A stretch of DNA of 64,000 bases from Nitrososphaerota archaeon (GCA_041641305.1 JBEPYN010000002.1:128001-192000), one strand, 5' to 3'; positions 27,550 through 60,294 are shown, numbered from the stretch's first letter. Notes: generated by a model not told the origin, from the letters alone. Numbers and translations: made by a program.

Positions 27550-27684
27550 ATGGGAACCGAGAAGAAAGAGTTCAGATGCCCATACTGCGACTCCGTCTTC
27601 AAGACCGAGGCCGAGCTCTCCAAACACATCGACAGAATACATATCGGCAGCGGGTTGCTTGAAGGCGACCGTACAAAATGGTGA
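27550..27684 (+). CDS. Small C2H2 zinc-finger protein (44 aa; absent from ORF track)
   Basis: MGTEKKEFRCPYCDSVFKTEAELSKHIDRIHIGSGLLEGDRTKW*; canonical F-x-C-x2-C-x3-F-x5-L-x2-H-x4-H; overlaps the next ATG (ATGGTGA). Confidence 0.85.
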   Translation: MGTEKKEFRCPYCDSVFKTEAELSKHIDRIHIGSGLLEGDRTKW

Positions 27685-29935: not shown

Positions 29936-30945
29936 CCTGTCTTCCACTGCTCTATTATGCTTTCAACGGAGTCCTCTCCCTTTTGAGCCATGACATACCT
30001 TAGCTCTTCCAACATTTTCTTAACCGTGTAGGGTCCTCTATAAACAAGCGCCGTGTAAAGCTGTACGGTATTAGCTCCTCTTCTCAACGCTTCATATACA
30101 TCTTTGCCCGTAAATACTCCTCCTAACGCGTGGATTTCAAAATTTGAGTCAACCATTTCTCGGACGTCGGAAACAACACGGAGCATGTATGGGAAAAGCG
30201 GTTTGCCGCTGAGGCCTCCTCTGCCAGCTGAAACACGTGGCTCGTCAACCAGTAAAGCGTTTACAGCAGTTACGCCTGTGAACCCGTTTTCAAACCATGT
30301 CTTGACTACACGGTATATGGATTGTTTTTCCTCTGGGCTGTTGTGGGGAGGTATTTTGAGGTAGGTGGGCTTGGTTTTCTCGGCAGCCAGCGACTCGGCG
30401 ACATCTTTGAAAACAGCTGGCGAGAAGTAGTGTCTCAGTTGGGGTGTGTTGGGTGAGCTTATGTTTATCTCTATGGCGTCGGCGTGTTTCTGAGCCTCTC
30501 TGTAGCATTTGAGAAGATACTGTGGATTTTCGTCGGCAACACTTATCAAGACCGGAACATCATAGGGCTTGTTCTTGTCGATGTTTTTCAGAAAATCTTC
30601 TAACCCGGGGTTTGGAAAGCCCATTGCGTTGACCAGCGCCTCTTCCCTTTCTCGTCTGACAACACGTGGTTTTGGAAGACCCTTTCTACGCATCAGCGTA
30701 ACAGTCCCTGCCACAACATAGCCGAATCCGAGCCGCTGCAGAGCTTTGACGTATTTTCCATGTTTATCGAAGCCTGCCGCTAAGCCTATCGGGTTTCTCA
30801 ACCGGCCGAAACATGTGTTAACGCTAAAGCCCCCTTCATCCATGTTTACTCTAATAGGTGTGAGTGAAAGCAAACGGAGACCGAGGACATGGCCCGTCTC
30901 GGGTGGCAGCCTTCTCAGAAACGCGTAAACATATTCTGCAAGCAA
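29932..30945 (-). CDS. pyrD: Dihydroorotate dehydrogenase, class 2 (quinone)-like
   Basis: NPIGLAAGFDK, NAMGFPNPG, NISSPNTP, GGLSGKP, VQLYTALVYRGP; start moved to TTG 30945. Confidence 0.88.
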   Translation of the reverse strand: MLAEYVYAFLRRLPPETGHVLGLRLLSLTPIRVNMDEGGFSVNTCFGRLRNPIGLAAGFDKHGKYVKALQRLGFGYVVAGTVTLMRRKGLPKPRVVRREREEALVNAMGFPNPGLEDFLKNIDKNKPYDVPVLISVADENPQYLLKCYREAQKHADAIEINISSPNTPQLRHYFSPAVFKDVAESLAAEKTKPTYLKIPPHNSPEEKQSIYRVVKTWFENGFTGVTAVNALLVDEPRVSAGRGGLSGKPLFPYMLRVVSDVREMVDSNFEIHALGGVFTGKDVYEALRRGANTVQLYTALVYRGPYTVKKMLEELRYVMAQKGEDSVESIIEQWKTG

Positions 30946-31137
30946 TCTATGCCTTCTAATTATAGGGTCTTTATCAACTATACCGGATTTAAAGATGTAG
31001 CAGGATAAAGATATATACCGAATATTCGAGGAGATTTTGTGGGGATGATTGCCGCGTTTTACGCGGTCTTGATTGGGGGCTGGGAGTCTGTCTAATGGGT
31101 CAGCGGCTTTTTTCTGTGATGGATGGGAGGGTTCTGG

Positions 31138-32292
31138 ATGCGTGTGCTGGTTCTGGGTGTAGGAGCGGTTGGAGAGGTTATAGCTAAACATCTCGTAGGT
31201 GAAAGCGGAGTCTCGCTGACGGTCGCCGACATCGATGAGCTGAGGCTGAGGCGAATCAGACGCATGCTGCGGAGAAGAGTTGAGACACGGATGGTAGGCG
31301 AAAACGGCTTTGATGAACTGGTTAAAGACGTCGACCTCGTCATAAACTCTGCAAAGCCCGCGATAAACCTTGAACTCATGAGGACTTGTCTACGATACGG
31401 TGTGAACTACATGGATTTGGCGAGTGACGATATTGATGAGCAGCTGGCTATGGACAGGAGCTGGCGGCGAAAAGAAGCCCTCGCGCTAATCTGCATGGGC
31501 GAGGACCCGGGCCTATCCAACATATACGCCAGATATGCCGCGGACAAGCTGGACAGAGTTAACGCCATCAGGATAAGGGACGGAGAATACTCTAAGAGCA
31601 GAAAATATCCTCTGATAGCGTTGTTTGCCCCCGAGATTTTCTTTGACGAGATACTGTCGCCTTCTCTTGTTTACGTAAACGGCCGATTCAGGAAGTTGCC
31701 TGCTCTCAGCGGCTATGAGGTTTACGAGTTTCCGGAGCCTATTGGCAAGCTTCCGGTCTACTCCGTCAGCCACGAGGAGGTGTATACTCTTCCGAGGTTT
31801 ATCGGGAAAGGTGTTCGCTACGTTGATTTTAAGCTGGCTCTTGCCGATGAATTGATAAACGCAACCAAGCTTCTGAAACGCATCGGGTTGCTGAGGTCGC
31901 GGCGTATGCGTGTCAAAGGTGCATCCGTGTCCCCGCGAGACGTATTCTTCGCTCTCATGCCCAAGCCCTCCGAGATAGCTAAGCATATCGAGGGTTATGC
32001 AAGTCTCGTCGTCGAGGTCGAGGGAGTCTCCAAAGGAAAAACCGTAACCTACACAATATACACCATGATGAGCCATGAGCAAGCCAACAAATTGTTCAGA
32101 GTAAACGCGACCGCTTACCTGACAGGCACCGTACCCGCGGTCGTCGCGTCAATGATTGCGAGAGGAGAGATTGATGAGGTTGGTGTCCGTGTTCCCGAGC
32201 AGCTTGACCCTGTTCCAATAGTTGAGCGTCTTGCACGCCGCGAGATATTGAGTTACGTGGAGTCTTCTGAGGAAAAGTTATTGGCGGAGTAG
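31138..32292 (+). CDS. Saccharopine dehydrogenase / carboxy(nor)spermidine dehydrogenase-like NAD(P) oxidoreductase
   Basis: GVGAVG, NYMDLA, MGEDPGLSN, HEEV motifs; SD GGGAGG at 31125-31130. Confidence 0.82.
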   Translation: MRVLVLGVGAVGEVIAKHLVGESGVSLTVADIDELRLRRIRRMLRRRVETRMVGENGFDELVKDVDLVINSAKPAINLELMRTCLRYGVNYMDLASDDIDEQLAMDRSWRRKEALALICMGEDPGLSNIYARYAADKLDRVNAIRIRDGEYSKSRKYPLIALFAPEIFFDEILSPSLVYVNGRFRKLPALSGYEVYEFPEPIGKLPVYSVSHEEVYTLPRFIGKGVRYVDFKLALADELINATKLLKRIGLLRSRRMRVKGASVSPRDVFFALMPKPSEIAKHIEGYASLVVEVEGVSKGKTVTYTIYTMMSHEQANKLFRVNATAYLTGTVPAVVASMIARGEIDEVGVRVPEQLDPVPIVERLARREILSYVESSEEKLLAE

Positions 32293-32307
32293 TCTGCGTC
32301 TCTGTTC

Positions 32308-33429
32308 ATGGATAGCGACCGTGCTCTCCAGCTTTTGGAGAGGCTTGTCGCTGTTCCAAGCCTTTCGGGGCATGAGGAAAAGGTTTGCGACCTTGTAGCC
32401 GAACATGTGGAGTCTCTGGGGTTTGTTGTCGAGAGGCAGGAGGTGTATAAGACGGGGTATAACGTGGTGACGAGGCTCGGCGACGGCGGTGATGTGCTTT
32501 TCTGCGGCCATCTCGACGTGGTTCCCGAGTATGATATGGTTGACGCTTTCAGACCACGGGTTGTCGGAGACAAGCTCTACGGCCGTGGTGCATGCGACAT
32601 GAAGGGTGGAGTGGTTTCCCTGCTTCTTCTGCTCGAGGGCCTCCTACAAATGGAGCCTGAGCCGAACGTCTCGTTTGCGTTCGTGGTTGATGAGGAGATG
32701 TATGGACGTGGGGCGGCTGAGCTTATGCGTCGTGGAACACGTGCCAAGATATGCATAATTACCGAGCCAACCAGCAACCTAATCTGCGTGGGCAACGCGT
32801 CATGCATGGAGTTTAGGTTAACAGCGTCGGGTAAAAGCGGCCACGGAGCCTCACGCGCAGATGGCAACGCAGTCAAGTCACTTATGAGGTTCTACGAAAT
32901 TTTTGAAAAACGGCTGATGACGGAGCTTGACGTAAGAGGCTCTGAGTTTCCGATGTCTCCTATCATTAACCTTGAAAGGTTTGAGGGCGGCATTGGTGGC
33001 TGGTTCATTCCATCCAAGGCCTTCTGCGAAGTATTGGTTCACATGCATCCCACGATAAGCTACAGAGAAGGCTTAGATGTTGTCCGTAAGCTGGTTGGGG
33101 AGACTGCGGCGGAGCTTGGAAGCTCTGTTGAGCTGACCATGCTCCATGGATGCGACGGATTCATCTTACCGCGGGAAAACCAGTTTCTCAAGCTACTTCA
33201 GCAGGCCTACAGCGTGGAAACGGGTCAGCAGCCCAAGACAGGTTTAATCGAGTCAGAGACTGATGGGAACGCACTCTACCACAAGGGAGGCATACCCTGC
33301 ATCGTCTACGGCCCCGGCGACATATCATACGCACACTCCAGCCAAGAACACGTCTCCATAGGAGATGTTACAGCCTGCTACAAGGTGCTTAAACGTTTCG
33401 TTGAAATGGTCAGCAATTCGCGCAACTGA
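32308..33429 (+). CDS. M20 ArgE/DapE-family deacylase
   Basis: GHLDVVP, GRGACDMKGG, VDEE, EPT, GPG..AHS. Confidence 0.87.
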   Translation: MDSDRALQLLERLVAVPSLSGHEEKVCDLVAEHVESLGFVVERQEVYKTGYNVVTRLGDGGDVLFCGHLDVVPEYDMVDAFRPRVVGDKLYGRGACDMKGGVVSLLLLLEGLLQMEPEPNVSFAFVVDEEMYGRGAAELMRRGTRAKICIITEPTSNLICVGNASCMEFRLTASGKSGHGASRADGNAVKSLMRFYEIFEKRLMTELDVRGSEFPMSPIINLERFEGGIGGWFIPSKAFCEVLVHMHPTISYREGLDVVRKLVGETAAELGSSVELTMLHGCDGFILPRENQFLKLLQQAYSVETGQQPKTGLIESETDGNALYHKGGIPCIVYGPGDISYAHSSQEHVSIGDVTACYKVLKRFVEMVSNSRN

Positions 33430-33463
33430 TATAAGCAGCTGTATCAATAAATTTTTGAGACCC

Positions 33464-34828
33464 TTGTCGGATAAAACGTTTCTGGAAAAGTTTCTCTCCA
33501 TTACAAAGCGTAGCAAAGCCCTTTACGACGAGGCCCTCGGACTAACACCACACGGCGTTCACAGCAATTGGCGGATCTTCGACCCCTACCCGCTCTTCAT
33601 GAACAGGGGGAAGGGCTCGCGGATATGGGACGCGGATGGAAACGAGTATCTTGACTATAACATGGCTTTCGGGGCCCTCGGCGTCGGGCATGCCCATCCT
33701 GTTCTCGTTGAGGAGGTGAAGAAAGTTATCGAGAACGGTACAATCTATGGTTTCGAGACGGAGGCGTCGGTTAAGACGGCGAAGGTTTTGACTGAGAGGT
33801 TTGGCTACGAGAGGGTTCGGTTTGCCACCACCGGTCTTGAGGCGACGCTGCTTGCTGTAAGGCTTGCACGCGCCTTTACTGGACGCAAAAAGATTCTGAA
33901 GTTTGAGGGATGTTTTCATGGGACGCATGAGCCGCTGATGGTGAGCGTCAAGCCAAGCATCTACAGAGCAGGTCATCCTAAGACACCAAACTCCGTGCCC
34001 GCAAGCATGGGAATGCCGCAGGAGTTCGCAGACCTCGTCATAGCAGCGCCCTATGGAGACCTCGACGCAGTGGAGAAAATCATGCAGAAACATGGAAACG
34101 AGGTCGCGGGCATCATCCTCGAGCCAATAGCCATGAACATGGGTGTTGTAATACCCAGTATAGAGTTTCTAAAAGGGTTGCGGCAGTTCGCCGACGAATA
34201 CAACTCGCTCCTCATATTTGACGAGGTGAAGACAAGCGGCAAGTTTTACAGGGGCGTGCAGGAGTGGTGCGGGGTGAAAGGCGACATCATGGTTACGGCG
34301 AAGTCAATCGCAGGCGGATACCCGTTTTCAGCAGTTTTATCCAGTAAAGAGGTGTTCGAAGTTGTGGGCCCGAACAAGACCGCCCACGGCGGAACCTTCA
34401 ACTCCAACCCGCTATCGGTAAACGCCGCCCACGTCACACTCACAAAAATACTCACCGAGGAAAACCTCCGCCACGCCCAAAACCTCAGCAAACAACTCGC
34501 CAACGGGTACGGAGACATCCTCGAAGACGCGAAAATCGACCACAACATATCACACATAGCAACAAGCGGAACAATCTACTTCACACAACACCCTATACGC
34601 AACTGGCGCGAATTCGTTAGACACAACGATTTTGGAAGATGGCTGGCATGGGTTCTCGGAATGCTCACAAACGGCGTGCTTCCACAGGCGCTGGGCTATG
34701 ATGAGCAGTGGACCGTCTCCGTCCAGCACAGCAAAGAAGACATAGAAACCACGTTGGAGGTGATGAAAAACGTCGTTACAAGCCTCCGAGAATCACGGCT
34801 CCAGATTGGTGTTGAGGAAGTTCTCTGA
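33464..34828 (+). CDS. Class-III PLP aminotransferase (GSA-aminomutase-like)
   Basis: WDADGNEYLD, GHAHP, KFEGCFHG, FDEVKT, AKSIAGG, GGTFNSNP; start moved to TTG 33464. Confidence 0.87.
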   Translation: MSDKTFLEKFLSITKRSKALYDEALGLTPHGVHSNWRIFDPYPLFMNRGKGSRIWDADGNEYLDYNMAFGALGVGHAHPVLVEEVKKVIENGTIYGFETEASVKTAKVLTERFGYERVRFATTGLEATLLAVRLARAFTGRKKILKFEGCFHGTHEPLMVSVKPSIYRAGHPKTPNSVPASMGMPQEFADLVIAAPYGDLDAVEKIMQKHGNEVAGIILEPIAMNMGVVIPSIEFLKGLRQFADEYNSLLIFDEVKTSGKFYRGVQEWCGVKGDIMVTAKSIAGGYPFSAVLSSKEVFEVVGPNKTAHGGTFNSNPLSVNAAHVTLTKILTEENLRHAQNLSKQLANGYGDILEDAKIDHNISHIATSGTIYFTQHPIRNWREFVRHNDFGRWLAWVLGMLTNGVLPQALGYDEQWTVSVQHSKEDIETTLEVMKNVVTSLRESRLQIGVEEVL

Positions 34829-34873
34829 AAAAACTTTATTCCGGGAATACGTCGCATTTGTAGAAGCGTAGAC

Positions 34874-35944
34874 ATGGCAGAGGTAGAGATAAGAAACGTC
34901 AAGAAAGTCTACGAAGGCGGGGTAGAGGCACTGCGGGGAGTGAGCCTCGCCATCGAGAAAAACGAGTTCTTCTCCCTACTGGGGCCAAGCGGCTGTGGAA
35001 AAACAACGCTTCTCCGCATTATCGCGGGGCTTGAGCAACAGGATGAGGGCGAGGTGATGATAGGTGGGAGAAACGTTGACAACGTCCCACCACACAAACG
35101 TGGAGTTGGACTGGTTTTCCAAGGAACGGCCATCTTCCCCCACATGACGGTGTATGACAACATAGCGTTCGGTCTCAAAATGAGGAAGTATCCGCGGCAG
35201 GAGATACGGGAAAGGATACGAAACATCCTTGAGCTGATGAACATGCCTTTCGAGAAATATGCGTGGAAGAAGTCGCATCAGCTCAGCGGCGGCGAGAGAC
35301 AGCGTGTCGAGATAGCGCGGTCGCTTGTTATTGAGCCGAAGGTGCTGCTGCTCGACGAGCCTCTTGGGCCGCTGGACCTCAAGATAAGGCAGAAGATGCA
35401 GCTGGAGCTTAAGCGGCTTCAGAAAAAGGTTGGCACAACATTTATCTATGTTACACATGACCAGACAGAGGCCTTCGCGATGTCCGACAGGATAGCGGTC
35501 ATGGAGAAGGGGCTTGTAGTACAGTTGGGTGCGCCCGAGGAGATTTACAGAAGGCCTGTGAGCAGGTTTGTCGCAGACTTCATCGGGGAAACCAACCTGA
35601 TAGAGGGAGAGGTTGAGGAGGATGGTCTCTTTGTGGCGGAGGGGCTGCCTCCTGTGAGAATCTCCCAAGAGGCTGCGGATGGCTTGGTTGGGAAGAGGGT
35701 TTACCTATCCATCAGACCCGAGCGCATTTACCTCGGCAACTCCGTGGACACAGAGAACAAGCTCACAGGCCCGGTTGTTGACAAAACCTACATGGGCCCC
35801 TACACCATGCTTAAGATTGGAGTAGGCGGCGACATGCTGCTGACCGTCCATGTCCGAGAACCCGACCTACTCCAGAGCATCAAAGTCGGCGACCGTGTCT
35901 CAATAGGCTGGAAAGCCTCAGACTCTTACCTCATAGAGAGATGA
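34874..35944 (+). CDS. potA: Spermidine/putrescine ABC transporter ATP-binding subunit
   Basis: GPSGCGKT, LSGGERQR, LLDEP, YVTHDQ, FVADFIG, C-terminal TOBE domain. Confidence 0.9.
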   Translation: MAEVEIRNVKKVYEGGVEALRGVSLAIEKNEFFSLLGPSGCGKTTLLRIIAGLEQQDEGEVMIGGRNVDNVPPHKRGVGLVFQGTAIFPHMTVYDNIAFGLKMRKYPRQEIRERIRNILELMNMPFEKYAWKKSHQLSGGERQRVEIARSLVIEPKVLLLDEPLGPLDLKIRQKMQLELKRLQKKVGTTFIYVTHDQTEAFAMSDRIAVMEKGLVVQLGAPEEIYRRPVSRFVADFIGETNLIEGEVEEDGLFVAEGLPPVRISQEAADGLVGKRVYLSIRPERIYLGNSVDTENKLTGPVVDKTYMGPYTMLKIGVGGDMLLTVHVREPDLLQSIKVGDRVSIGWKASDSYLIER

Positions 35945-36810
35945 AGACGATGAAGCAGAGGAGGAAAACGGGGCTAATACTGTTGCTTCTTCTCCCGCCT
36001 TTTCTATTCTACATCAGCTTCTTCCTCGCCCCGTTTCTCACCGTTGTGGGTGTCAGCGTCGGCCTCATATTACCGAGCGAAGCACAGCAGGCACGCGGCG
36101 AGGTCATCACACTACGCTATTTCCAAGACGCGTTGGACCCCATCTTCATTCGAGTTCTCAGCCGGTCTCTTCTCTTCGCCCTCGCGACTTCAGCGGGATG
36201 CGTCTTGCTCGGCTTTCCCGTGGCATACTTCATAGCATTCAAAGGAGGCCGGTACAAAAACTTCCTCATACTCCTCGTCATCCTTCCTCTCTGGGTAACC
36301 TTCGTGCTTAGAGCCTATGCTGTTCTCTCACTTCTCGGACCCGAGGGGGTCGTCAACTCATTTCTCATGAACCTCGGAGTAATCAAGCAGCCCCTCTACC
36401 TCATCTACAATGAGTTCGCCGTCATGCTGGGGATGCTCTACGGATACCTGCCCTTCATGATACTCCCCCTCTATGCAAGCCTCGAAAAAATAAGCAAAAC
36501 AGTGGTCGAAGCAGCGCGAGCGCTCGGCGCAGGCCCTTTCACAGCATTTCTCAAGGTAACACTGCCGCTTAGCAAGCCTGGACTAGTCGCGGGAACGCTC
36601 CTCACCTTCATTCCCGCCGCCGGAGAATTCATCATCCCATCTTTCCTCGGAGGCCCCAACGAGGTTTTCGTGGGAACCATGATTTACTCCGCCTTCATCT
36701 CAGCACGTAACTGGAACTGGGGCTCGGCGCTTTCGCTGGTCTACATCGCGCTGGTCATCGTCGGCGTAACCCTCTACATGCGATACTCGAAAGAGGAGTT
36801 GACGATATGA
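35941..36810 (+). CDS. potB: Spermidine/putrescine ABC transporter permease
   Basis: LPFMILPLYASLE, EAARALGA, TLPLSKPG, NWNWGSA. Confidence 0.88.
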   Translation: MKTMKQRRKTGLILLLLLPPFLFYISFFLAPFLTVVGVSVGLILPSEAQQARGEVITLRYFQDALDPIFIRVLSRSLLFALATSAGCVLLGFPVAYFIAFKGGRYKNFLILLVILPLWVTFVLRAYAVLSLLGPEGVVNSFLMNLGVIKQPLYLIYNEFAVMLGMLYGYLPFMILPLYASLEKISKTVVEAARALGAGPFTAFLKVTLPLSKPGLVAGTLLTFIPAAGEFIIPSFLGGPNEVFVGTMIYSAFISARNWNWGSALSLVYIALVIVGVTLYMRYSKEELTI

Positions 36811-37580
36811 AGGCGGGAGATATTCTGCTCAAGATTGTTGTCGTCCTCATTTTCCTGTTTCTCTACGCTCCGCTGGCTGCGATGGTCATCGGCTCTTTCA
36901 ACGCGGGACGCACTATTGTGGAGTGGGTTGGCTTCACTTTTGACTGGTATGTGAGAGCGTTCTCCAACGAGAGGATATTGGCCGCTGTTTACAATAGTTT
37001 CTGGGTGGCGGCTATCGTGTCTCTCTCAGCGGTGGTGCTGGCTCTTCTCGCGGCGGTGGCTGTGTCGAGGCTTTCGCCACGTATCCAGACCGGCGTCAAC
37101 AACGTCTTCTACCTCTCTATCGTGGTGCCTGAGATTGCGGAGGCTTTGACCATTGTTCTCTTCTTTCTCTGGGTGAATGTGCCGCTTGGCGTCGGCGCGG
37201 TCATCATAGGTCATCTGGTCTGGTTTCCGCTGGTCTATGTTGTTGTGAGGGCGCGTATGGCTGGGCTTCCGAGGGTTTACGAAGATGCTGCACGTGTGCT
37301 GGGTGCATCGGGGCTGCGGACTTTCTTCAGCGTGACGCTGCCGCTGCTCATGCCTGGCGTAATCACAGGCGGTCTCCTAATCTTCACATGGTCATGGGAC
37401 AGCTTCATCAAAACACAGTTCACACGAGGCCCCGGATTCGAAACCCTTCCAGTCTACATTTGGAACGCGGTCGGTGGCCGTGGAAGAGGCATATCGCCCG
37501 AGGTTAACGCAGTTGCTACTGTCTCCCTGCTCGTCTCGGTGACCCTTGCAATTCTTTACACACGCTTTAGGTCACGGTAG
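36807..37580 (+). CDS. potC: Spermidine/putrescine ABC transporter permease
   Basis: FLYAPL...SFN, GFTFDWY, VPEI, EDAARVLGA, TLP, PEVNA. Confidence 0.88.
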   Translation: MKAGDILLKIVVVLIFLFLYAPLAAMVIGSFNAGRTIVEWVGFTFDWYVRAFSNERILAAVYNSFWVAAIVSLSAVVLALLAAVAVSRLSPRIQTGVNNVFYLSIVVPEIAEALTIVLFFLWVNVPLGVGAVIIGHLVWFPLVYVVVRARMAGLPRVYEDAARVLGASGLRTFFSVTLPLLMPGVITGGLLIFTWSWDSFIKTQFTRGPGFETLPVYIWNAVGGRGRGISPEVNAVATVSLLVSVTLAILYTRFRSR

Positions 37581-38804
37581 CTAAGCAGCCAAAACTTCGA
37601 GCCACGCCTTAGTCAACATCTCCTTCTGCTCAGGCGTCCTGTTCAGCCACATCTCATATTTCGCGATGACCTCTGGCGGCGGGTAGATGCTCGTGTCTTC
37701 CTTCATGTAGTCTGGCAGCATCTCGTAGGCGAGGCTGTTGGGTGTGACGAGGCTGTTGTAGAGAACGTGCGCCACCTGGACAGCGGGTTCGAGCAGGTAG
37801 TTCATCAGAGCGTATGCCGCGTCAAGGTTCTTTGCTGACTTGGGAATGACAAGCGAGTCCTCCCAAATCTCTGAACCCTCTACAGGGGCGACGTAATCCA
37901 CGTTGTTGGCCGAGTCCTGCCAAACCCATGTCTCACTCACCCAGAAACGCGCCTCCTCGAGGCCGGGCACAAACTCTGAGGGCCCTGCGTAAGTCGCTAT
38001 GTGAGGCTTCTGCTGAATCAGTATCTCCTTTGCCTCATTTATGTTCTCGGGAGTGATGTCGTTTATCGACTTGCCCATAACCGCTTTGATGACGACGGGG
38101 ATTGTTTCGACGCCTCCGGGGATGATGGTGGCTGTTTTCACTCCGTCCCGTGGACTGTACTTGGGGAGGAAGTGGTCAAAGTCGAAGAGCGAGTCCCTGA
38201 AGCCTGTGGGCCAATCCTCCTCAGCTATTTTGTCGGTTCTGAAGGACACCCCGGTTGTGCCGAGCTCTATGGGCACGGAGTAGCCTCTATCGGGGTCGAA
38301 GGGTGGGTTGAGGATGTCTTTTATGAAGCCTGTGAAAGCGTATCTCTTGAAGTTGGGTATGCGGTTGAGGTCGAGCTTGGTGAGGTAGCGTTCATGCTCC
38401 GCCCGCGTCATGCCTCCCATGGTTACCGAGGTTACGTCATATTGCATCTGGCCCGTGAAAAGCTTGGCGTAAACCTCGTCGCTGCTCTCAAAGGTGTCGA
38501 AAATCACTTTCACACCGGTTTTCTCCTCGAAGAATGTTAACAACTGCTCGGGAAGGGTTTCGGACCAGAAGTAGAACCTTACCTCCTTGTCCTTTATCTC
38601 ATACTGGGCGAGCTTTTCCTTCAACTCGTTTATCTCAGCCTCGAGGGCGCGTATGGTCTCGTTTGCTGCTGTCGTGGCCTGTCTCTCCAACTCACTGCGC
38701 GTAATCTGCGACCCCGCAACATATCCGCCCGCAGCGCCAACTATGCCTGCCGCGACAATTGACCCAACCGTCCTGAAGAAAGAACGTCTCGAAACCTCTG
38801 ACAT
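37581..38804 (-). CDS. potD: Polyamine ABC transporter substrate-binding protein with twin-arginine signal
   Basis: SRRSFF Tat motif plus hydrophobic helix; FWSE...FEEKTGVKV.FDTFESSDEVYAKL; IWEDSLVIPK (PotD W-x-D). Confidence 0.85.
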   Translation of the reverse strand: MSEVSRRSFFRTVGSIVAAGIVGAAGGYVAGSQITRSELERQATTAANETIRALEAEINELKEKLAQYEIKDKEVRFYFWSETLPEQLLTFFEEKTGVKVIFDTFESSDEVYAKLFTGQMQYDVTSVTMGGMTRAEHERYLTKLDLNRIPNFKRYAFTGFIKDILNPPFDPDRGYSVPIELGTTGVSFRTDKIAEEDWPTGFRDSLFDFDHFLPKYSPRDGVKTATIIPGGVETIPVVIKAVMGKSINDITPENINEAKEILIQQKPHIATYAGPSEFVPGLEEARFWVSETWVWQDSANNVDYVAPVEGSEIWEDSLVIPKSAKNLDAAYALMNYLLEPAVQVAHVLYNSLVTPNSLAYEMLPDYMKEDTSIYPPPEVIAKYEMWLNRTPEQKEMLTKAWLEVLAA

Positions 38805-38850
38805 TATTGAAATGACAGGCTGAACGCTTATAAATTTTTTCGCAAATCCA

Positions 38851-40014
38851 TTATGCCGGGTATTCAGTTGACGTAGTTTTTATGCCGTGTGCAGCAACTT
38901 GTTCCAGAAAAGTCTCGTGGTCTATGCATGTCTCGGGCGGCACAACGCCTCTCTGCTTAACCTCTCCCTCTGCTATCATCATCGCGGCTATCGAGGAGGG
39001 TATGCCTACGCCTGTTTGGGCGCAGCTCATTCTCCACTCGGGCTTCGGCGGAAAAACTATGTCATAAACAAGTTTCACGCTTTTTCCTGATTTTTTGCCG
39101 TGTATGATGAGACGTGTTATCTCCCAGTCGTTGGGTGTCTGGTCGCCTCTGTAGCCGAGTAGGCCGCGTTGCTCCAGCAGCTTGAGGAGAAACCTTCGCG
39201 GAGAAACCTTCACGCCGTCAACATCAATTTCCTCGGAGGATGCGAAGCCCATGTCGGCGAGTTTCTTGACAAATAGAAGCTCAGCACTACCTTCCATCCA
39301 GTCACACTCCTTCAAACCCTTGTCGTGGAAGCTTCTGGGAAAAGTCGCCAGCTCGGAGTGTATCGTGATGTATGTGTCCAGAGGGCCAACCGGAGGCGGA
39401 AAATCAACCCTCTCCATCAGGCTCAGCGGCGGCACGGAGACGATGCGGCCGTCGCGTAGCACGACGGCGTCGAGCGTCATCTCGTCGAAGAGTGTGAGAG
39501 GCGACCATGTGAAGAGAGGCGGGTTTTCGGTGAGGTCGGCTGAGCCGTCCCTGATGTAGACCGCCCGCATTTCATCCAACTGGTCGTAGGCGTGTTTTGC
39601 GACGAGGTTGGTCAACCCCGGCTGGGCGCCCATGCCAACCAAGGCTGTCAAACCCCTGGACCTGAACAAGTCATCAAGCTCAAGCTGTTTCAACGTAACG
39701 TGGTAGAGGCCGCCGTGGTCAACATAGTGGACACCGGCCTGCAAAGCAGCCTTCATCACATCGATGTTGAAGTAGTACTGGACAGCGTTGATGACGACGT
39801 CGCATCCCCTGATAAACGCGGCGGTCTCCTCAACGTTTCGCACATCGATTTTCGCGATGGATAGTTTCTCGCTTTTGACGCTGTTCGCGAGCTTATCAAG
39901 AGCCTTTGGGTTGAAGTCGCCCACACGGACATCGGAGACCTTCTTGTTCTCGAGAAGGTTTCTAACAGCTGCCTGGCCCGTTAAACCTGCTCCACCCAGA
40001 ACAGCTATCCTCAT
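38851..40014 (-). CDS. Saccharopine dehydrogenase-like NAD(P) oxidoreductase (second copy)
   Basis: GGAGLTG, HYVDHGG, GMGAQPGLTN, HSELAT, GVVPPE. Confidence 0.83.
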   Translation of the reverse strand: MRIAVLGGAGLTGQAAVRNLLENKKVSDVRVGDFNPKALDKLANSVKSEKLSIAKIDVRNVEETAAFIRGCDVVINAVQYYFNIDVMKAALQAGVHYVDHGGLYHVTLKQLELDDLFRSRGLTALVGMGAQPGLTNLVAKHAYDQLDEMRAVYIRDGSADLTENPPLFTWSPLTLFDEMTLDAVVLRDGRIVSVPPLSLMERVDFPPPVGPLDTYITIHSELATFPRSFHDKGLKECDWMEGSAELLFVKKLADMGFASSEEIDVDGVKVSPRRFLLKLLEQRGLLGYRGDQTPNDWEITRLIIHGKKSGKSVKLVYDIVFPPKPEWRMSCAQTGVGIPSSIAAMMIAEGEVKQRGVVPPETCIDHETFLEQVAAHGIKTTSTEYPA

Positions 40015-40031
40015 ACCTATCCCTGAGGAGA

Positions 40032-42323
40032 CTATTGTCTCGGGCCTGTGTTTGCAAGTTTCCAGACCACATAGGGTGTGAGCGGTGTTTTCTCTATGTG
40101 TACTCCGTGGGGTGAGAGGGCGTCTTCTACAGCGTTTACGATGGCTTGTGTGAAGCCGATGGTCGCAAGCTCACCCACACCCTTTGTGCCGAGCGGATTG
40201 GGCGCAGGTGTCTCGGTGCGTTCGAGAATCATGGGCGGGGCTTCGGCGGCGCTTGGGATGAGGTAGTCGGCGAAAGAGCTTGTGAGCAATGCTCCGTTTT
40301 CGCCGTAGACAACCTCCTCAAAGAGGGCTTGGCCAAGTGCTTGAACCGCTCCACCGTGTATCTGTCCTTCGACCAGCATGGGGTTGACGACTTTGCCGAC
40401 GTCGTTGACGAGGTAGGCTTTCTTGACCTCGACCCTACCTGTCTCGGGGTAGACCTCGACGAGGGCTAGGTATGCGCCGTATGGGAAGGTTAGCTCGGGG
40501 TTGTAGAAGCTCGTCGCAGCAAGCCCCATCTCCACATCCTCCGGCAGCTTCTCCGGGTCATAAGCCATGGACGCTACCTCTTCGAAGGAGAGGCTTTTCT
40601 CGGGCGCGTCCTTTACGTAGAACTTGCCGTCCTCGAGTGCTATGTCATCGGGGCTGCATTCAAGGTTTTTTGCCGCTATCTTCACCATCTTCGCCCTAAG
40701 CTGGTTGCATGCATTAAGTATGGCGTTGCCTCCCGATGTGAGTGTCCAGCTGCCCGCAGTCCCCCATCCATAGGGAATTGCGAGGGTGTCGCCGTGGATG
40801 ACTTGGACATCATCCATAGAGACGGAGAAGACGTCTGCGACGAGTTGTGCAAAAGCTGTTTCCTCGCCTTGTCCGTGTGGGGAGGTGCTGGTGAAGACGA
40901 GTATTTTTCCGCTTGGCTCGATGCGGACAGATGCGCTCTGGTAAGAGAAGTTGCATACCTCGATGAAGGTTGAAAGCCCTATCCCCACATAGCGGCCCTG
41001 GCCCCGAAGCTCATCACGCATTCTCTTCAACGCAGGGTAGTCAGCCGAGTTGAGCAGAGTGTCCAACGCCTTTGCATAGTCTCCCGAGTCGTAGACAAAT
41101 CCTGTCAAGGTCTTATATGGGAGCTTGTCTGAGGGGATGAAGTTTCTGCGTCTGATTTCCGCCGGGTCTATGCCGAGTTTACGGGCTATGATCTCCATTG
41201 TTCTCTCGATGATGAAAGAGGCCTCGGGTCTGCCTGCTCCCCGATAAGCGTCTGTCGCCATCTTGTTTGTGTAAACTCCGATGACCTCGAGCTCGAGACC
41301 CTGTATCATGTAGCAGCCCTGAACCATCCTAGCAGCCATTATCGGGTTATCCTGCGTGTAGACATAGTTGTATGCGCCGAGGTCGGCCAAAAGCCTGAGA
41401 CGGAGAGCGAGAACCTCGCCACTTCTCTTAACGGCTGCTGAGACATAGGCTATCATGTCTCTGCCATGGGTGGTGGCTGCGAGGTTTTCACCACGTTCCT
41501 CAAACCATTTAACGGGCCTTCCCAGCTGCATAGCCAGATAAGGTATTATGATTTCTTCGGGGTAGTGGTTTAGCTTAGAGCCGAACCCTCCTCCAACCTC
41601 TGGCGCGATAACCCTCACCCTGTTCTCAGGCATGTTCAGCGATGTAGATATCCACGTACGGAGACGGTGCGGAAACTGTGTAGAAGACCAGACAGTCAGC
41701 ATCCTGTTGTAGCCGTCATAGTGGGCTACCACGCCGCGTGGCTCCATAGCCGACGGCGCAAGACGTTGAATAACAATACGTGCATTCACGGCCTCGTCAG
41801 CGTCGCTGAACAGCTTCTCAACATCGCCGTAAACCCTCCTCCACCTAAAGCAGACATTGTCTTCAAGCGTTTCATGAACACGTGGAGCATCTTTCTCGAG
41901 AGCCTTCTCCGGGTCTACCACGGCGGGGAGAGGCTCATACTCGACTTGGATAAGCTCTGCAGCGTCTTTAGCGGTGTATAGGTCCTCCGCCACAACCACG
42001 GCAACAGGCTCGCCCTGAAACTTGACAACATCGACTGCGAGCGGCTCACGTTTGACGAACCTCTCCTCATCCATTATGGTTTCAACAACCTGCGAACCCA
42101 CCTTTCCACTCAGGTCCCGACCCGTCAAAACCGCGACAACACCCTTGACTTTTTTCGCCGCCGAAACATCGATGGACTTTATTCTCGCATGTGCGTGAGG
42201 GCTTCTCACAAAAACCGCGTAAACCATACCCGGAAGCCTGATGTCATCGACATAGGTTGATTCCCCCTTTACGAGACGCGGGTCCTCCTTCCGCTTTACA
42301 GCCGAGCCCACTAGCTTGGCCAT
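40032..42323 (-). CDS. Xanthine-dehydrogenase-family molybdopterin large subunit (CoxL form II / aldehyde oxidoreductase-like)
   Basis: RKEDPRL, RSPHAHARI, MEPRG, VGGGFGSK, AYRGAGRPE, HGQG, VEGQIHGG, GTKGVGE; start moved to ATG 42323. Confidence 0.9.
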   Translation of the reverse strand: MAKLVGSAVKRKEDPRLVKGESTYVDDIRLPGMVYAVFVRSPHAHARIKSIDVSAAKKVKGVVAVLTGRDLSGKVGSQVVETIMDEERFVKREPLAVDVVKFQGEPVAVVVAEDLYTAKDAAELIQVEYEPLPAVVDPEKALEKDAPRVHETLEDNVCFRWRRVYGDVEKLFSDADEAVNARIVIQRLAPSAMEPRGVVAHYDGYNRMLTVWSSTQFPHRLRTWISTSLNMPENRVRVIAPEVGGGFGSKLNHYPEEIIIPYLAMQLGRPVKWFEERGENLAATTHGRDMIAYVSAAVKRSGEVLALRLRLLADLGAYNYVYTQDNPIMAARMVQGCYMIQGLELEVIGVYTNKMATDAYRGAGRPEASFIIERTMEIIARKLGIDPAEIRRRNFIPSDKLPYKTLTGFVYDSGDYAKALDTLLNSADYPALKRMRDELRGQGRYVGIGLSTFIEVCNFSYQSASVRIEPSGKILVFTSTSPHGQGEETAFAQLVADVFSVSMDDVQVIHGDTLAIPYGWGTAGSWTLTSGGNAILNACNQLRAKMVKIAAKNLECSPDDIALEDGKFYVKDAPEKSLSFEEVASMAYDPEKLPEDVEMGLAATSFYNPELTFPYGAYLALVEVYPETGRVEVKKAYLVNDVGKVVNPMLVEGQIHGGAVQALGQALFEEVVYGENGALLTSSFADYLIPSAAEAPPMILERTETPAPNPLGTKGVGELATIGFTQAIVNAVEDALSPHGVHIEKTPLTPYVVWKLANTGPRQ

Positions 42324-42396
42324 GTACTTATTTGAATAATGGCGGGTATAAAAAATTCCCGGCTCATAAATGTTATATCTCTGAGGGCTGTCTGAG

Positions 42397-43740
42397 TTGT
42401 TCATGGATGACGTTGTTGAAGACACGATAAAGTACACCTATGGAACGTGGCGACGGCAGAGGGGTTGGAAGCCTCTCCACGTGGTCGATGCGGAGGGATG
42501 CTACTTCACCGATGCCTCGGGGAAAAAGTATCTCGATTTTTCTTCGCAGCTCGTCTGTGTAAACCTCGGCCACAGGAACAGAAACGTCATCGAAGCTGTG
42601 AAAAACTATCTCGAGAAAACACCGTATCTTACGCCTGCTTTCACGTGTGATGTGCGGGCGGAGCTTAGCAGGAAACTTGTCGAGATACTGCCGCCTGGTC
42701 TAAGAAAATTCTTCTACAGCACTTCGGGGACAGAGGCCAACGAGGCCGCTCTCAAAATCTCCCGCGCATACACGAGGAGGCATAAGATAATCGCGCGCTA
42801 CCGCTCCTACCATGGAGCGACAGCCGCCTCCATGGCCGTTACGGGAGAGGTTCGCCGCTGGTACACAGAGGCTTTCCACTCGGTGCCTGGAACAGTCTAT
42901 GCACCGGACCCATATTGTTACCGCTGCCCACTCAAGCTCACTTATCCCGAATGCGGTGTCGCGTGCGCTGATTATGTGGACTACATGTTGGAGCATGATG
43001 GTAACGTGGCTGCTGTGATTGTGGAGCCTGTTGTGGGGACAAACGGTGTCATCGTGCCGCCTCCCGAGTATCTGCCGAAGCTGCGTGAGATAACTCGGAA
43101 ACATGGTGTGCTCTTGATAGCTGATGAGGTGATGAGCGCCTGGGGCCGTGTAGGCGAATGGTTCGCCGTCAACCACTGGAACGTCGAGCCCGACATTCTC
43201 ACCACAGCCAAGGGCATAACATCCGCCATCCTTCCACTGGGTGTAACAGCCACCTCGGAAAAAATCAGCGAATACTTCGACGACAACCTCTTTCCACATG
43301 GTCACACATATGAGGCGCATCCGCTCACGTTGGCGGCGGCTGTGGCGGCCATAGACGAGTACAGGAGGCTTAACCTGATCGAGCGGTCGAGGAGGATGGG
43401 CGAGTATCTGGGGAAGCGGTTGAAGGAAGTGGGTGAAAGGCATCCATCGGTGGGTGAGGTGAGGGGCCTCGGCCTCTTCTGGGCGGTTGACCTCACCAAG
43501 AACCAGAGGACACGGGAGCCCTTCAACGTGCCGAAAGACAAGTACGCCGGAGCACCCCTCGTCGTCGAACAGGTCGCCGCTGAGATGATGAAGCAGGGCG
43601 TCTACACCATGTCTTGGATAAACCACCTCGTCATCGCGCCTCCACTCATAGTCGAGAAAGAGGACATCGACAAAGGCGTCGAGGCTCTTGACAAGGCGCT
43701 AAAAGTAGCTGATGAAAAAACCGAGAAAAACGCCCAATAA
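42397..43740 (+). CDS. Class-III PLP aminotransferase (omega-amine/taurine/beta-alanine:pyruvate type)
   Basis: YLDFSSQL, SGTEANE, SYHGAT, CYRCP, EPVVG, ADEVM, TAKGITS, HGHTY. Confidence 0.88.
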   Translation: MFMDDVVEDTIKYTYGTWRRQRGWKPLHVVDAEGCYFTDASGKKYLDFSSQLVCVNLGHRNRNVIEAVKNYLEKTPYLTPAFTCDVRAELSRKLVEILPPGLRKFFYSTSGTEANEAALKISRAYTRRHKIIARYRSYHGATAASMAVTGEVRRWYTEAFHSVPGTVYAPDPYCYRCPLKLTYPECGVACADYVDYMLEHDGNVAAVIVEPVVGTNGVIVPPPEYLPKLREITRKHGVLLIADEVMSAWGRVGEWFAVNHWNVEPDILTTAKGITSAILPLGVTATSEKISEYFDDNLFPHGHTYEAHPLTLAAAVAAIDEYRRLNLIERSRRMGEYLGKRLKEVGERHPSVGEVRGLGLFWAVDLTKNQRTREPFNVPKDKYAGAPLVVEQVAAEMMKQGVYTMSWINHLVIAPPLIVEKEDIDKGVEALDKALKVADEKTEKNAQ

Positions 43741-43991
43741 GCCAAAATAAGGAAAAATAAGGCTTTCTAAGCCGCCAAACAAATTTTTAAACATTACCAC
43801 GCCTCGTTTACATGCTCTTAACTGGATGTGGGCAACGGAGAGCCGTGGCTCTGGGACGCCGGTCTAACATTTCGCGTTAAAGGGTTTTTTCCGCTATTTT
43901 CCACTGTTTTACGGCGTTTTTATTAATTTATTGGTAGAAAAAGGATAAATCTGGCAGAAAAATACATCCGCCCAGAAGGAGGTGTAGTTGC

Positions 43992-45320
43992 ATGATGAAA
44001 ACACTCCTCCACAGGAAAACCAAGTCGGAGGAGCTATTGAATGAAGCTAGAAAAATCATTCCAACTGGCGCGTCCTCAGTGATGCGCACCCGCATACCCA
44101 ACACCATGTTTGCTATCAAGGGAAGAGGCGCCCACATATGGGACGTCGACGGCAACGAATACATCGACTATCTGCTGGGCTTCGGCGCTTTGATCAACGG
44201 CCACTGTCACCCGAGGATTGTGGAGGCTGTTAAGAGGCAGGCTGAGGAGCTTCTGATGAGCGGTACACCAGTCGAGCTCGAGATGGAGGTCGCGAAGAAG
44301 ATTCAGCGTGTTGTTCCCAACGCGGAGATGGTGCTCTTCGCGTCGACCGGGACCGAGGCGACGATGGAGGCCATCAGAATCGCGAGAGCTGTGACAGGCA
44401 AGACAAAGATAATCAAGTTCGAGGGCTCCTACCACGGCCACCATGACTACGTGCTGTGGAGCGTTGAGTCATCGAACCCAGGCCTCGAGATATCACCGTT
44501 CCGGATCCCCTACTACCCAGGCATACCCGAGTCCGTTGGAAAAACCGTCACCATAGCACCGTGGAACAACCTTGAAGCGCTGCGAAAAATTGTGCGCCGT
44601 AACCGCAGCAACCTCGCAGCAATTATAGCCGAGCCTGTGATGGCGAACAACGGCGTCATCCCCCCCAAGCCCGGGTTCCTCAAGGCGTTGAAGGAGCTTG
44701 CTGAAGAGGCTGAGGCCCTGCTCATCTTCGACGAGGTAATCACAGGCTTCAGGCTTGCCCCAGGCGGCGCACAGGAACATTTCGGCGTCAAAGCGGACCT
44801 CGCCACCTTCGGAAAAGCTCTCGGAGGAGGAGTGCCAATAGCCGCTGTCACGGGCCGCAGAGACATTCTCGAAAACATAGGCCCCGGTAAGATAGGGTTC
44901 GGGGGAACATACAACGCACATCCAGTCAGCCTCGCGGCTACCTCGGCGAACCTCGACATCCTCCTCGAAAACGGCGGAGAAGCCTTCCACAGACTACACG
45001 CCACAGGCGAGAAGCTGATGCAGGGTCTCCGAGAAGCCATAGAGGACACGGGTGTCAAAGCAATGGTTCAGGGCATCGGCCCCCTCTTCCAAGTCTACTT
45101 CACAGACCTGCCTGAGATAACATCCTACAGGGAGCGGCTGGCCGTAGATCCGCAGGCCTACACCGAGTGGGCCCTGGAACTCTTTGAACGAGGTGTCTTC
45201 ATCTACGCAGACGACGGTGAGAGGATCCTGATCTCGACACAACACACAGACGAGGATGTTGAGAAGACCGTCGCCGCGGCTGAAGAGGCCTTCCGAGCTG
45301 TTAAGGCAAGGTTCAACTGA
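43992..45320 (+). CDS. Class-III PLP aminotransferase (GSA-aminomutase-like), second copy
   Basis: WDVDGNEYID, STGTEATM, KFEGSYHGHHD, FDEVITGFR, GKALGGG, GGTYNAHP; SD AGGAGGTG at 43977-43984. Confidence 0.87.
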   Translation: MMKTLLHRKTKSEELLNEARKIIPTGASSVMRTRIPNTMFAIKGRGAHIWDVDGNEYIDYLLGFGALINGHCHPRIVEAVKRQAEELLMSGTPVELEMEVAKKIQRVVPNAEMVLFASTGTEATMEAIRIARAVTGKTKIIKFEGSYHGHHDYVLWSVESSNPGLEISPFRIPYYPGIPESVGKTVTIAPWNNLEALRKIVRRNRSNLAAIIAEPVMANNGVIPPKPGFLKALKELAEEAEALLIFDEVITGFRLAPGGAQEHFGVKADLATFGKALGGGVPIAAVTGRRDILENIGPGKIGFGGTYNAHPVSLAATSANLDILLENGGEAFHRLHATGEKLMQGLREAIEDTGVKAMVQGIGPLFQVYFTDLPEITSYRERLAVDPQAYTEWALELFERGVFIYADDGERILISTQHTDEDVEKTVAAAEEAFRAVKARFN

Positions 45321-46620
45321 CCTGTTTAGAGACCTCTTTCAACGATTCTTCGACGGTGTCGAGACCCTTCTCCAGCGTCTCCTCCTCGATTGTAAGCGGC
45401 GGATGAAATCTTACAACGTTTGAGTAAAGCCCGGCTTTGAGCAGCAATACTCCTCGGCGTCTCGCGTTCTCCAGTAGGGCTGTCGTCTCCTTGACCGCTG
45501 GCTCCTTGCTCCGCCTGTCCTTGACCAGCTCAAAAGCCCTCATCACACCCAAGCCTCTAACGTCGCCCACGAGCTCAAACCTCTCAAGAAACTCTTCAAG
45601 CCTCCTCCCCATTTTTTCACCGAGACGCATAGCACGGTCGGCCATGTTTTCACGCCGCATTATCTCGAAGACTTTGACCGCTGCTGCGCATGAGACAGGG
45701 TTTCCCCCGAACGTTGAGCCCAGGGAGCCGGGAGGCATTCCGTCCATTAGCGAGGCTTTTCCCGCAACACCTGCGAGCGGGAGACCATTTGCCATAGCTT
45801 TACCAACTGTCACGAGGTCTGGCACCACCCCGCTGTGCTCGACGGCGTAGAAACGCCCTGTCCTGCAGAACCCTGTCTGAACCTCGTCATCTATCAAGAC
45901 TATGCCGTTTTCGTCGCAGATGTTTCGCAGCTCCCTAAGATACTCTGGCGGAGCAGGCACAAACCCGCCTTCACCCTGGACGGGCTCTATGATGAAACAC
46001 GCTATCTTATGCGGTGGAACCCTTGCCTTGAAGAAATGTTTTTTGACATAGTCCATGCATTCGAGGCCGCAGCCGGGATAGCTCTGCCCAAACGGGCAAC
46101 GGTAGCAGTAGGGGAATGGGACATGCTCAACCGCTGGTGGGAAGGGTTCGAAGTCAACCTTGTATGGCTCATACTTGCCTGTCAAGGCCATGGCGAGATA
46201 TGTGCGGCCGTGGAAAGAGTTCTCGAAAGACACCGCATAAGGTCTCTTAGTCATGTGGCGAGCTATTTTTACAGCGTTCTCAACAGCCTCGGCGCCGCTG
46301 TTTAACAATATACCTCGTTTCTCGAAATCTCCGGGAATGGTCTCGACAAGCTTCTCAACAACCTCCACGTAGCCGGGGTAGTTGGCAACCATTATACAGA
46401 GATGCCATGGGTTCTTCAACGCTTTTTCAACGGCTTCCCCTATCTCGGGGTTACCGTGTCCAAGGTTCACCACACCTATGCCCGAGGTGAAGTCGATGTA
46501 GTTGTTGCCCTCGGAGTCAATGAGCACAGCGTTCTCGCCGCGTATGATGGTTAGCGGATGGACAAGCGTAACCCCGGGAGAAACAAGTCGCCTAAGTTCT
46601 AGAAACTTGTTCACGTCCAA
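45313..46620 (-). CDS. gabT: 4-aminobutyrate aminotransferase-like class-III aminotransferase
   Basis: YIDFTSGIGV, NSGAEAVENAVKIAR, FHGRT, EPVQGEGG, DEVQTGFCRTG, GKAMANG; start moved to TTG 46620. Confidence 0.8.
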   Translation of the reverse strand: MDVNKFLELRRLVSPGVTLVHPLTIIRGENAVLIDSEGNNYIDFTSGIGVVNLGHGNPEIGEAVEKALKNPWHLCIMVANYPGYVEVVEKLVETIPGDFEKRGILLNSGAEAVENAVKIARHMTKRPYAVSFENSFHGRTYLAMALTGKYEPYKVDFEPFPPAVEHVPFPYCYRCPFGQSYPGCGLECMDYVKKHFFKARVPPHKIACFIIEPVQGEGGFVPAPPEYLRELRNICDENGIVLIDDEVQTGFCRTGRFYAVEHSGVVPDLVTVGKAMANGLPLAGVAGKASLMDGMPPGSLGSTFGGNPVSCAAAVKVFEIMRRENMADRAMRLGEKMGRRLEEFLERFELVGDVRGLGVMRAFELVKDRRSKEPAVKETTALLENARRRGVLLLKAGLYSNVVRFHPPLTIEEETLEKGLDTVEESLKEVSKQVS

Positions 46621-56426: not shown

Positions 56427-56532
56427 GGGTTTGGTTTAGCCGCTTTTATGGCTTTGCTGTAAGGCTTGTGATAAAAGTGTTGTGGATGGATTATGGGCAA
56501 CGGTTTTATCGGAGTAGTTGGACGAGGGCTTC

Positions 56533-60197: not shown

Positions 60198-60294
60198 ATA
60201 CATTTTTATCCACAATATGTTTCCATGGGTTAAACGTTTTATAGCGAAAATTCCCCCTTTCCGCCAAGCCTTGGGCTGAAGCAGGTGGTTGCCG

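Follow-up and report, generated by a model that had tools for sequence, protein, structure and literature searches.

Four routes of polyamine degradation have been listed for prokaryotes, and gamma-glutamylation was reported in 2021 as the first to be shown in archaea (PMC8394153). This route is represented by the Puu proteins of E. coli, the Pau/Spu proteins of Pseudomonas, and GlnA-2 of Haloferax mediterranei. In E. coli, PatA/PatD, GabT/GabD, and PotABCD/PotFGHI provide Pot-type import, transamination, aldehyde oxidation, and a gamma-aminobutyrate (GABA) shunt. Here, we describe a cluster of 12 genes at positions 31138 to 46620 of a 64,000-nucleotide stretch of DNA (the window) from a Nitrososphaerota archaeon (GCA_041641305.1 JBEPYN010000002.1:128001-192000). 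The cluster encodes two saccharopine-dehydrogenase-like proteins (SDH_A and SDH_B), an M20-family hydrolase (M20), four aminotransferases (AT1–AT4), a Pot-type importer (PotABCD), and the large subunit of a Mo hydroxylase (MoL). It most likely breaks down polyamine-like amines with enzyme types never shown to do so.

SDH_A and SDH_B share a fold with carboxyspermidine, carboxynorspermidine, and carboxyaminopropylagmatine dehydrogenases (CASDH, CANSDH, and CAPADH; PDB 8DEB, 8H4Z, 4INA, 4RL6; PMC10413350, PMC10599626), and we assume that they share the interconversion of amine plus aldehyde with a secondary amine. The cluster enzymes, however, are only ~30% identical to these proteins and are encoded together with an importer, transaminases, and an aldehyde oxidizer. 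Import, transamination, aldehyde oxidation, and a GABA shunt are common to the cluster and the E. coli PatA/PatD system, but the cluster has HemL-like transaminases, a Mo-dependent aldehyde oxidizer, extra dehydrogenases, M20, and a probable beta-alanine branch. AT1- and AT3-like genes occur together with Pot importers in the Puu-type clusters of haloarchaea, whereas the cluster described here lacks PuuA, PuuB, and PuuD, and a single glutamine synthetase gene is present in the host genome. Lysine 6-dehydrogenase (LysDH; PH1688, PDB 3ABI) belongs to the same superfamily and is NAD-type and catabolic, but it is less similar to the cluster dehydrogenases than CASDH is. The reaction proposed for M20 is that of acetylpolyamine amidohydrolase (APAH), an enzyme of the unrelated HDAC fold (PMC9992855); M20 is ArgE/DapE-like with a charge-reversed pocket. 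MoL, an orphan large subunit, passes the cut-off for Sulfolobales CutA-type aldehyde oxidoreductase large subunits (NF041018), but its substrate is probably an aminoaldehyde. By membership tests on the encoded proteins, the cluster is outside the CASDH biosynthetic system, the Puu/Pau route, and the APAH family. We consider it probable (roughly 0.62) that it imports aliphatic polyamines of the spermidine, norspermidine, and putrescine type, N-acylated ones among them, and degrades them by a route that uses neither gamma-glutamylation nor a flavin oxidase. Support for a polyamine-type substrate is indirect.

A two-module gene cluster in Caldarchaeum

Open reading frame (ORF) calls in the window, combined with family searches, yielded 12 intact ORFs between 31138 and 46620 in the order SDH_A, M20, AT1, potA, potB, potC, potD, SDH_B, MoL, AT2, AT3, and AT4. 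An earlier reading of the window made from the sequence alone (the first-pass annotation) had given these genes the same identities and order. They are arranged as a cluster of four directional blocks, not as a single operon: SDH_A-M20-AT1-potABC on the plus strand, MoL-SDH_B-potD on the minus strand, AT2-AT3 on the plus strand, and AT4 on the minus strand. The host is a hot-spring Caldarchaeum with a genome (G000) of 1.66 Mb that is 99% complete; its nearest homologues carry the name Ca. Caldarchaeum.

Conservation of the cluster, which the first-pass annotation had put forward as a check, is seen in relatives. One relative (G009) has all 12 genes in the same order with 82–93% identity and another (G001) has 11 of the 12, also in order, which indicates that the clustering is not due to chance. 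Among 40 relatives, close SDH_B homologues (E < 1e-70) and AT1 orthologues are present in an identical set of 11. Of the 17 family genomes, the 8 with the cluster are also those marked by PotD; AT2 is present in seven and M20 in five of these eight, and neither was found in other family genomes. The genes fall into two modules, SDH_A/M20/AT1/PotABCD/SDH_B and MoL/AT2/AT3 plus a GabT-type gene. The same 8 of 17 family genomes contain both modules, which are joined, split, or shuffled: they are adjacent in G000, separated by ~47 kb in G012, located on different contigs in G014, and interleaved in G013, in which MoL and AT3 sit within the first module. These co-occurrence counts are a measure of linkage rather than of statistical independence, since the genomes are kin and several are incomplete.

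The first-pass annotation had described the locus as an island. Its distribution is indeed patchy, but the G+C content of the cluster (53.9%) is close to that of the genome (51.9%) and a search of the window revealed no tRNA, so that a recent mobile island was rejected in favor of a patchily distributed cluster; likewise, no mobile-element family was seen in the window. An empty-site comparison showed that the genes flanking the cluster are unlinked in relatives. The same annotation had listed functions absent from the window. Puu, amine-oxidase, aldehyde dehydrogenase (ALDH), decarboxylase, and aminopropyltransferase families are indeed missing among the scanned ORFs of the window, but this absence does not extend to the whole genome, which holds six NAD-dependent ALDHs, two spermine-synthase-family (SpeE-family) genes, and one SpeD-type gene as well as one HDAC-family deacetylase. 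A genome search of G000 failed to find a group IV decarboxylase, BpsA, or a pyruvoyl arginine decarboxylase. The suggestion that long or branched polyamines of thermophiles define the substrate had to be abandoned: besides the missing BpsA, the same gene set is found in mesophilic peat archaea, haloarchaea, and alphaproteobacteria.

Dehydrogenases of the CASDH family

SDH_A (31138..32292, plus strand) and SDH_B (38851..40014, minus strand) both show the PF03435 plus PF16653 architecture and are 29% identical to each other. A PDB sequence search revealed CASDHs as the closest solved relatives of both; each scores lower against LysDH. The active site of CASDH comprises His228-Glu229-Glu230 together with Glu188, and its selectivity for NADP arises from Ser34-Arg35-Thr36 (PMC10413350; family residue assignments also from PMC10599626). 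SDH_A has the complete His-Glu-Glu triad (H212, E213, E214; Bf 228–230) in addition to E171, D123, and D148, thereby retaining the equivalents of CASDH D140, E188, and D166. In SDH_B, the triad reads His-Ser-Glu (H219, S220, E221) and E178 and D156 are present; the D140 equivalent is missing. Both enzymes keep the Asp that, in a docking model of CAPADH, binds the amino group of the aminopropyl moiety.

SDH_A and SDH_B differ from CASDH in the cofactor site. The column of CASDH Ser34 is occupied by Asp31 in SDH_A and Asp33 in SDH_B, and the NADP-binding Ser-Arg-Thr motif is replaced. Asp is found at this column in 89 of 97 non-CASDH rows of the alignment. In Rossmann folds, an Asp at the cofactor-selectivity position favors NAD, which leads us to predict that SDH_A and SDH_B prefer NAD over NADP. 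Moreover, searches for the CASDC decarboxylase did not find it in G000, in any of the eight family genomes that carry the cluster, or in the 108 homologous loci of at least 10 kb (63 for SDH_A and 45 for SDH_B), whereas it was evident at once in a genuine CASDH locus. The two dehydrogenases score 129.6 and 58.5 bits against NCBIfam NF043000, below its cut-off of 800. A role in CASDH biosynthesis was rejected on the basis of the replaced NADP motif and the missing CASDC. Judged from these sequence features, the catabolic direction is well supported, as the first-pass annotation had proposed.

A quick tree places SDH_A in a supported clade (SH-aLRT 98) with two CASDHs and actinobacterial enzymes, while SDH_B groups separately and less firmly with haloarchaeal and alphaproteobacterial proteins; these dehydrogenase families are not confined to archaea. 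In one Mycobacterium record, the gene for a His-Glu-Glu enzyme adjoins that for an aminobutyraldehyde dehydrogenase. A constraint grouping the NAD-type His-Glu-Glu enzymes without CASDH was rejected (p-AU 0.016), although the group was picked after the tree had been seen, and the tree contains two CASDHs and omits 22 rows that were redundant or partial, which makes the nesting tentative. The NADPH-dependent biosynthetic CASDHs may thus nest inside the NAD-type enzymes, near the actinobacterial ones, and may derive from a catabolic family. A wider generalization is possible but doubtful. SDH_A and SDH_B might exemplify a widespread, uncharacterized class of NAD+-dependent enzymes that cut polyamines, or their oxidized forms, at secondary amines and within which the biosynthetic CASDH arose. 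In combination with an acetylpolyamine deacylase of the M20 fold and polyamine transaminases derived from HemL, this class would constitute a further route of degradation, free of ATP and flavin oxidases, across archaea and some bacteria.

Proteins for predicted import, deacylation, transamination, and aldehyde oxidation

The importer consists of a PotA-subfamily ATPase (34874..35944, plus strand) that scores at the cut-off of TIGR01187 (355.7 versus 355.6), a PotB/H-type permease (35941..36810, plus strand), a PotC/I-type permease (36807..37580, plus strand), and a PotD/F-class binding protein that carries a twin-arginine signal (37581..38804, minus strand). PotD had 22 matches in a PDB sequence search; all are named as binding proteins of the spermidine/putrescine family except Lmo0810, which is unnamed. 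In a multiple alignment, the protein keeps the equivalents of W34, E36, E171, W229, W255, and D257 of E. coli PotD, which we take to be contacts for spermidine. The ligand is likely a cationic amine, though not necessarily spermidine. An HMMER alignment suggested that position 232 of PotD is occupied by an acidic residue as in PotF, but this assignment was dropped when the multiple alignment showed a deletion there. Some relatives carry a second Pot-like importer beside another class III transaminase (L033:1-3561, L035:3739-9102, L036:12355-17742, L244:4350-9829). The binding protein of this second importer differs in its pocket (W-E-D, C-D, W-x-C); G000 lacks the importer.

M20 (32308..33429, plus strand) has a predicted structure (pLDDT 94) that matches DapE and ArgE structures at 20–24% identity, and the ligands of the two metals are kept. 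In HiDapE, the carboxylate of the substrate is bound by Arg258, Asn245, and Thr325 (PMC5919655; see also PMC4012986). Sequence alignment shows that these residues are replaced in M20 by H245, W232, and E317, respectively; His, Trp, and Glu occupy the three columns in all 22 M20 homologues, while the other M20 proteins of G000 keep the Arg. This reversal of charge fits an acylated amine that has no carboxylate, such as an acetylpolyamine, and is thus consistent with a deacetylation step. Close homologues of M20 are encoded next to Pot, transaminase, and dehydrogenase genes; for distant homologues, this linkage is less clear. Two additional M20 hydrolases flank the cluster (27678-29024 and 49587-50720), the latter of which keeps the carboxylate-binding Arg.

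The Lys and Asp that engage pyridoxal phosphate are kept in all four aminotransferases. AT1 (33464..34828, plus strand), a core gene with a probable TTG start at 33464 in an ORF open from 33365, and AT3 (43992..45320, plus strand) are HemL/GSA-aminomutase-like class III enzymes. Both score below the cut-off of 527 for HemL (TIGR00713), AT1 with 351 and AT3 with 420; AT3 passes the broader NF000818. AT1 was rejected as a plain HemL, and another HemL-like gene lies at C1:335736 of G000. AT1 (129) and AT2 (224) also score below the cut-off of 612 for PatA-type enzymes (NF008570). AT2 (42403..43740, plus strand) is a PRK06062-like omega-transaminase whose nearest solved structure is taurine:2-oxoglutarate transaminase. 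Its homologues in Haloferax volcanii (49% identity) and Thermus thermophilus (44%) flank a CoA-acylating methylmalonate-semialdehyde dehydrogenase (MMSDH), a pairing expected for beta-alanine, so that AT2 is a probable beta-alanine transaminase. AT4 (45313..46620, minus strand) is an accessory, GabT-like GABA/5-aminovalerate:2-oxoglutarate transaminase that keeps GabT residues I50, R141, E211, Q242, K268, and R398 and narrowly misses the cut-off of TIGR00700 (471.7 versus 506.65).

The unusual DEVKT and QWT motifs of AT1 recur in its best cultured homologues. The loci of these homologues in Natrialba magadii and Natronorubrum aibiense also contain AT3-like genes and genes for glutamine synthetase-like (PuuA-like) ligases, glutamine amidotransferases, FAD oxidoreductases, and Pot importers; the Natrialba locus additionally contains an HDAC-type deacetylase and an agmatinase. 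Judged by gene families, this assemblage corresponds to the Puu route. In Natribaculum luteum, AT3-like, Pot, AOR, ALDH, SDH_B-like, and MMSDH genes lie together. By analogy, the haloarchaeal context of the AT1 and AT3 homologues is the best independent pointer to polyamines, at identities of just 38–40%.

MoL (40032..42323, minus strand) scores 813.9 against NF041018 (Sulfolobales glyceraldehyde dehydrogenase alpha), above the cut-off of 790. It was rejected as a form I aerobic CO dehydrogenase, as it has an AYRGAGR rather than an AYxCSFR loop and scores 627 against 991 bits. The FAD and FeS subunit genes for MoL are located elsewhere in the genome. Of Mo-hydroxylase large subunits, G000 encodes 13 at full length, plus one split pair and two fragments at contig ends, versus six FAD and six FeS subunit genes, and these numbers make sharing of the smaller subunits likely. 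Such sharing is known among Sulfolobales aldehyde oxidoreductases. In relatives, the slot of MoL is filled by an ALDH, AOR, or MMSDH gene, which argues that MoL oxidizes aldehydes. The six NAD-dependent ALDHs encoded outside the window include an MMSDH-like protein (48% identical to the Natribaculum enzyme) and an aminobutyraldehyde-dehydrogenase-like protein (40%).

Proposed route, alternatives, and flanking sequence

These observations suggest a model in which the cluster works like a PatA/GabT aminotransferase route to which a cleavage step has been added. PotABCD would import a cationic amine, and M20 would remove the N-acyl group from a non-carboxylated amine. The HemL-like AT1 and AT3 would transaminate terminal amines to aminoaldehydes, which MoL, with shared FAD and FeS subunits, would oxidize to acids; the NAD-dependent ALDHs encoded elsewhere may contribute. 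SDH_A and SDH_B, running CASDH chemistry oxidatively with NAD+, would cut the C–N bond at the secondary amine to yield an amine and an aldehyde, a step to which we give slightly less than even odds. The substrate of this cleavage would be either the intact polyamine or an N-(aminoalkyl)-omega-amino acid of the putreanine type formed by transamination and oxidation; the latter may be compatible with a conserved His that contacts the carboxylate in the CAPADH model. As paralogues, SDH_A and SDH_B would handle two sides of the molecule or two successive cuts. Finally, AT4 and AT2 would deaminate GABA and beta-alanine, and the resulting succinate semialdehyde and malonate semialdehyde would be oxidized by ALDHs encoded elsewhere. 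Deacetylation, aldehyde oxidation by the Mo enzyme, and GABA and beta-alanine as end points had all been anticipated by the first-pass annotation, and the M20 pocket, the family and replacements of MoL, and the features of AT4 and AT2 agree with it.

Several considerations weigh against degradation of polyamines. All of the evidence comes from sequence and genomic context, and the genomes compared are kin, several of them incomplete. Reductive amination is the thermodynamically favored direction for these dehydrogenases, so that oxidation would need a pull on the product, for example, by cyclization to a pyrroline. PotD lacks equivalents of D168, Y37, Y85, and Y293 in the multiple alignment and falls far under the PotD/PotF equivalog cut-offs. 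The importer type varies across homologous loci: Opp peptide-type importers accompany 20 and Pot binding proteins 15 of the 63 SDH_A loci, and the corresponding counts are 18 and 2 for the 45 SDH_B loci. Some homologues are solitary or lie in unrelated neighborhoods. Context is transferred loosely from cultured organisms, in which the homologues closest to the cluster proteins are just 30–40% identical (49% for AT2). Finally, twelve Thermoplasmata loci with SDH_A homologues (L091, L093-L096, L098, L100-L102, L106, L108, L111) add at least two Rieske oxygenases, CrtO-like flavoproteins, and an Opp importer, an arrangement that by analogy suggests other N-alkyl amines. The enzyme families of the cluster probably act on more than one substrate.

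One alternative is that the cluster degrades some other cationic amine, which could carry an N-alkyl or N-methyl group or be a modified lysine, a modified diamino acid, or a conjugate of an amino acid, with the Pot importer and omega-transaminases acting as generic components. The diverged PotD pocket, the variable importers, and the demethylase-like Rieske genes fit this explanation, as does a Bathyarchaeia SDH_B homologue that sits among hydantoinase, cyclodeaminase, and dipeptidase genes. Set against it are the Puu-type context of the AT1 and AT3 homologues, the presence of end enzymes for beta-alanine and GABA, an M20 pocket unsuited to acyl-amino acids, and the retained acidic and Trp core of PotD. 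We regard it as unlikely, yet as an alternative to be taken seriously.

An improbable alternative is that SDH_A and SDH_B act like LysDH, oxidatively deaminating the primary terminal amine of lysine, cadaverine, or putrescine to a cyclic imine without cutting a secondary amine. The NAD-type Asp is common to these enzymes and PH1688, SDH_B matches 3ABI with an E value of 3e-18, and some homologues carry the automatic database label lysine 6-dehydrogenase. However, both dehydrogenases score higher against CASDH than against LysDH structures, LysDH lacks the His-Glu-Glu triad that SDH_A has, and the step would be redundant with four transaminases that already handle primary amines. It is very improbable that the cluster is biosynthetic, with the dehydrogenases condensing aspartate semialdehyde or transaminase-made aminoaldehydes with imported diamines to form longer or carboxylated polyamines. 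Such a role would account for CASDHs as nearest solved relatives, for the His-Glu-Glu, D140, and E188 equivalents of SDH_A, and for the favored direction of the reaction; it conflicts with the Asp in place of the NADP motif, the missing CASDC, and aldehyde-oxidizing enzymes, which would destroy the aldehyde donors, in 21 of 63 SDH_A and 24 of 45 SDH_B loci. SpeD- and SpeE-family genes also lie elsewhere in the genome, and 9 of the 17 family genomes have no match. We give next to no credence to two unrelated modules lying side by side by chance, since the separation of the modules in G012 and G014 and the occurrence of AT4 in a genome without a match to the cluster (G007) are outweighed by the restriction of AT2 to cluster-bearing genomes, the interleaving in G013, and the AT3-like genes that flank SDH_B homologues in 26 of 45 loci and in haloarchaea.

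To our knowledge, flavin-oxidase-free cleavage of spermidine-type secondary amines is unsettled for most prokaryotes. Degradation of polyamines by the cluster, if true, would assign functions to large families that are misannotated as saccharopine dehydrogenase, HemL, or ArgE/DapE and explain how heterotrophic Caldarchaeales scavenge carbon and nitrogen from amines. The weight of this reading is limited by the membership of every enzyme in a known superfamily and by the assignment of substrates from sequence. Our literature search revealed no paper describing the route, the gene set, or polyamines in Caldarchaeum; most subscription journals lay outside the search, and novelty is not proven. 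The reading is directly testable, as cultured haloarchaea and rhizobia have clusters of a similar kind. Related clusters are carried by Haladaptatus caseinilyticus, Natribaculum luteum, Pararhizobium gei, and Terrarubrum flagellatum, all of them cultured (among L221, L227, L239, L225, L224, and L230).

The cluster contains no regulator gene, an Rfam search of the window gave no match, and a scan of the window for promoters and terminators, which used a bacterial model for an archaeal host, was at chance level. The leader 5' of SDH_A folds no better than shuffled sequence (z +0.70), so that an attenuator lacks folding support. It contains a small conserved CCGC/GCGG hairpin and, at 31039-31095, an 18-codon upstream ORF that is open in G009 and L061, with the stop position kept (TAA/TGA). 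A 24-nt element with TCTG-N-CAGA (43938..43961, plus strand), a candidate promoter or operator, lies ~30 nt upstream of AT3 and is identical in three species (G000, G009, and G001); its 18-nt core has no second match in G000 at up to two mismatches.

A dihydroorotate dehydrogenase gene (29932-30936) adjoins the cluster and is absent from that spot in G009, in which L031:5691-6100 appears to be a short remnant of its 5' end. At the thresholds applied, a Pfam search gave no match for two convergent ORFs of 746 and 726 amino acids (5317-9734) and three shorter ORFs (16157-17008, 47797-48354, 56493-57407) elsewhere in the window. Two topoisomerase genes of the window are expected for the lineage: one of the reverse-gyrase type at 11308-14844, which combines a helicase with topoisomerase IA, and one for a eukaryote-type topoisomerase IB at 60289-61914.

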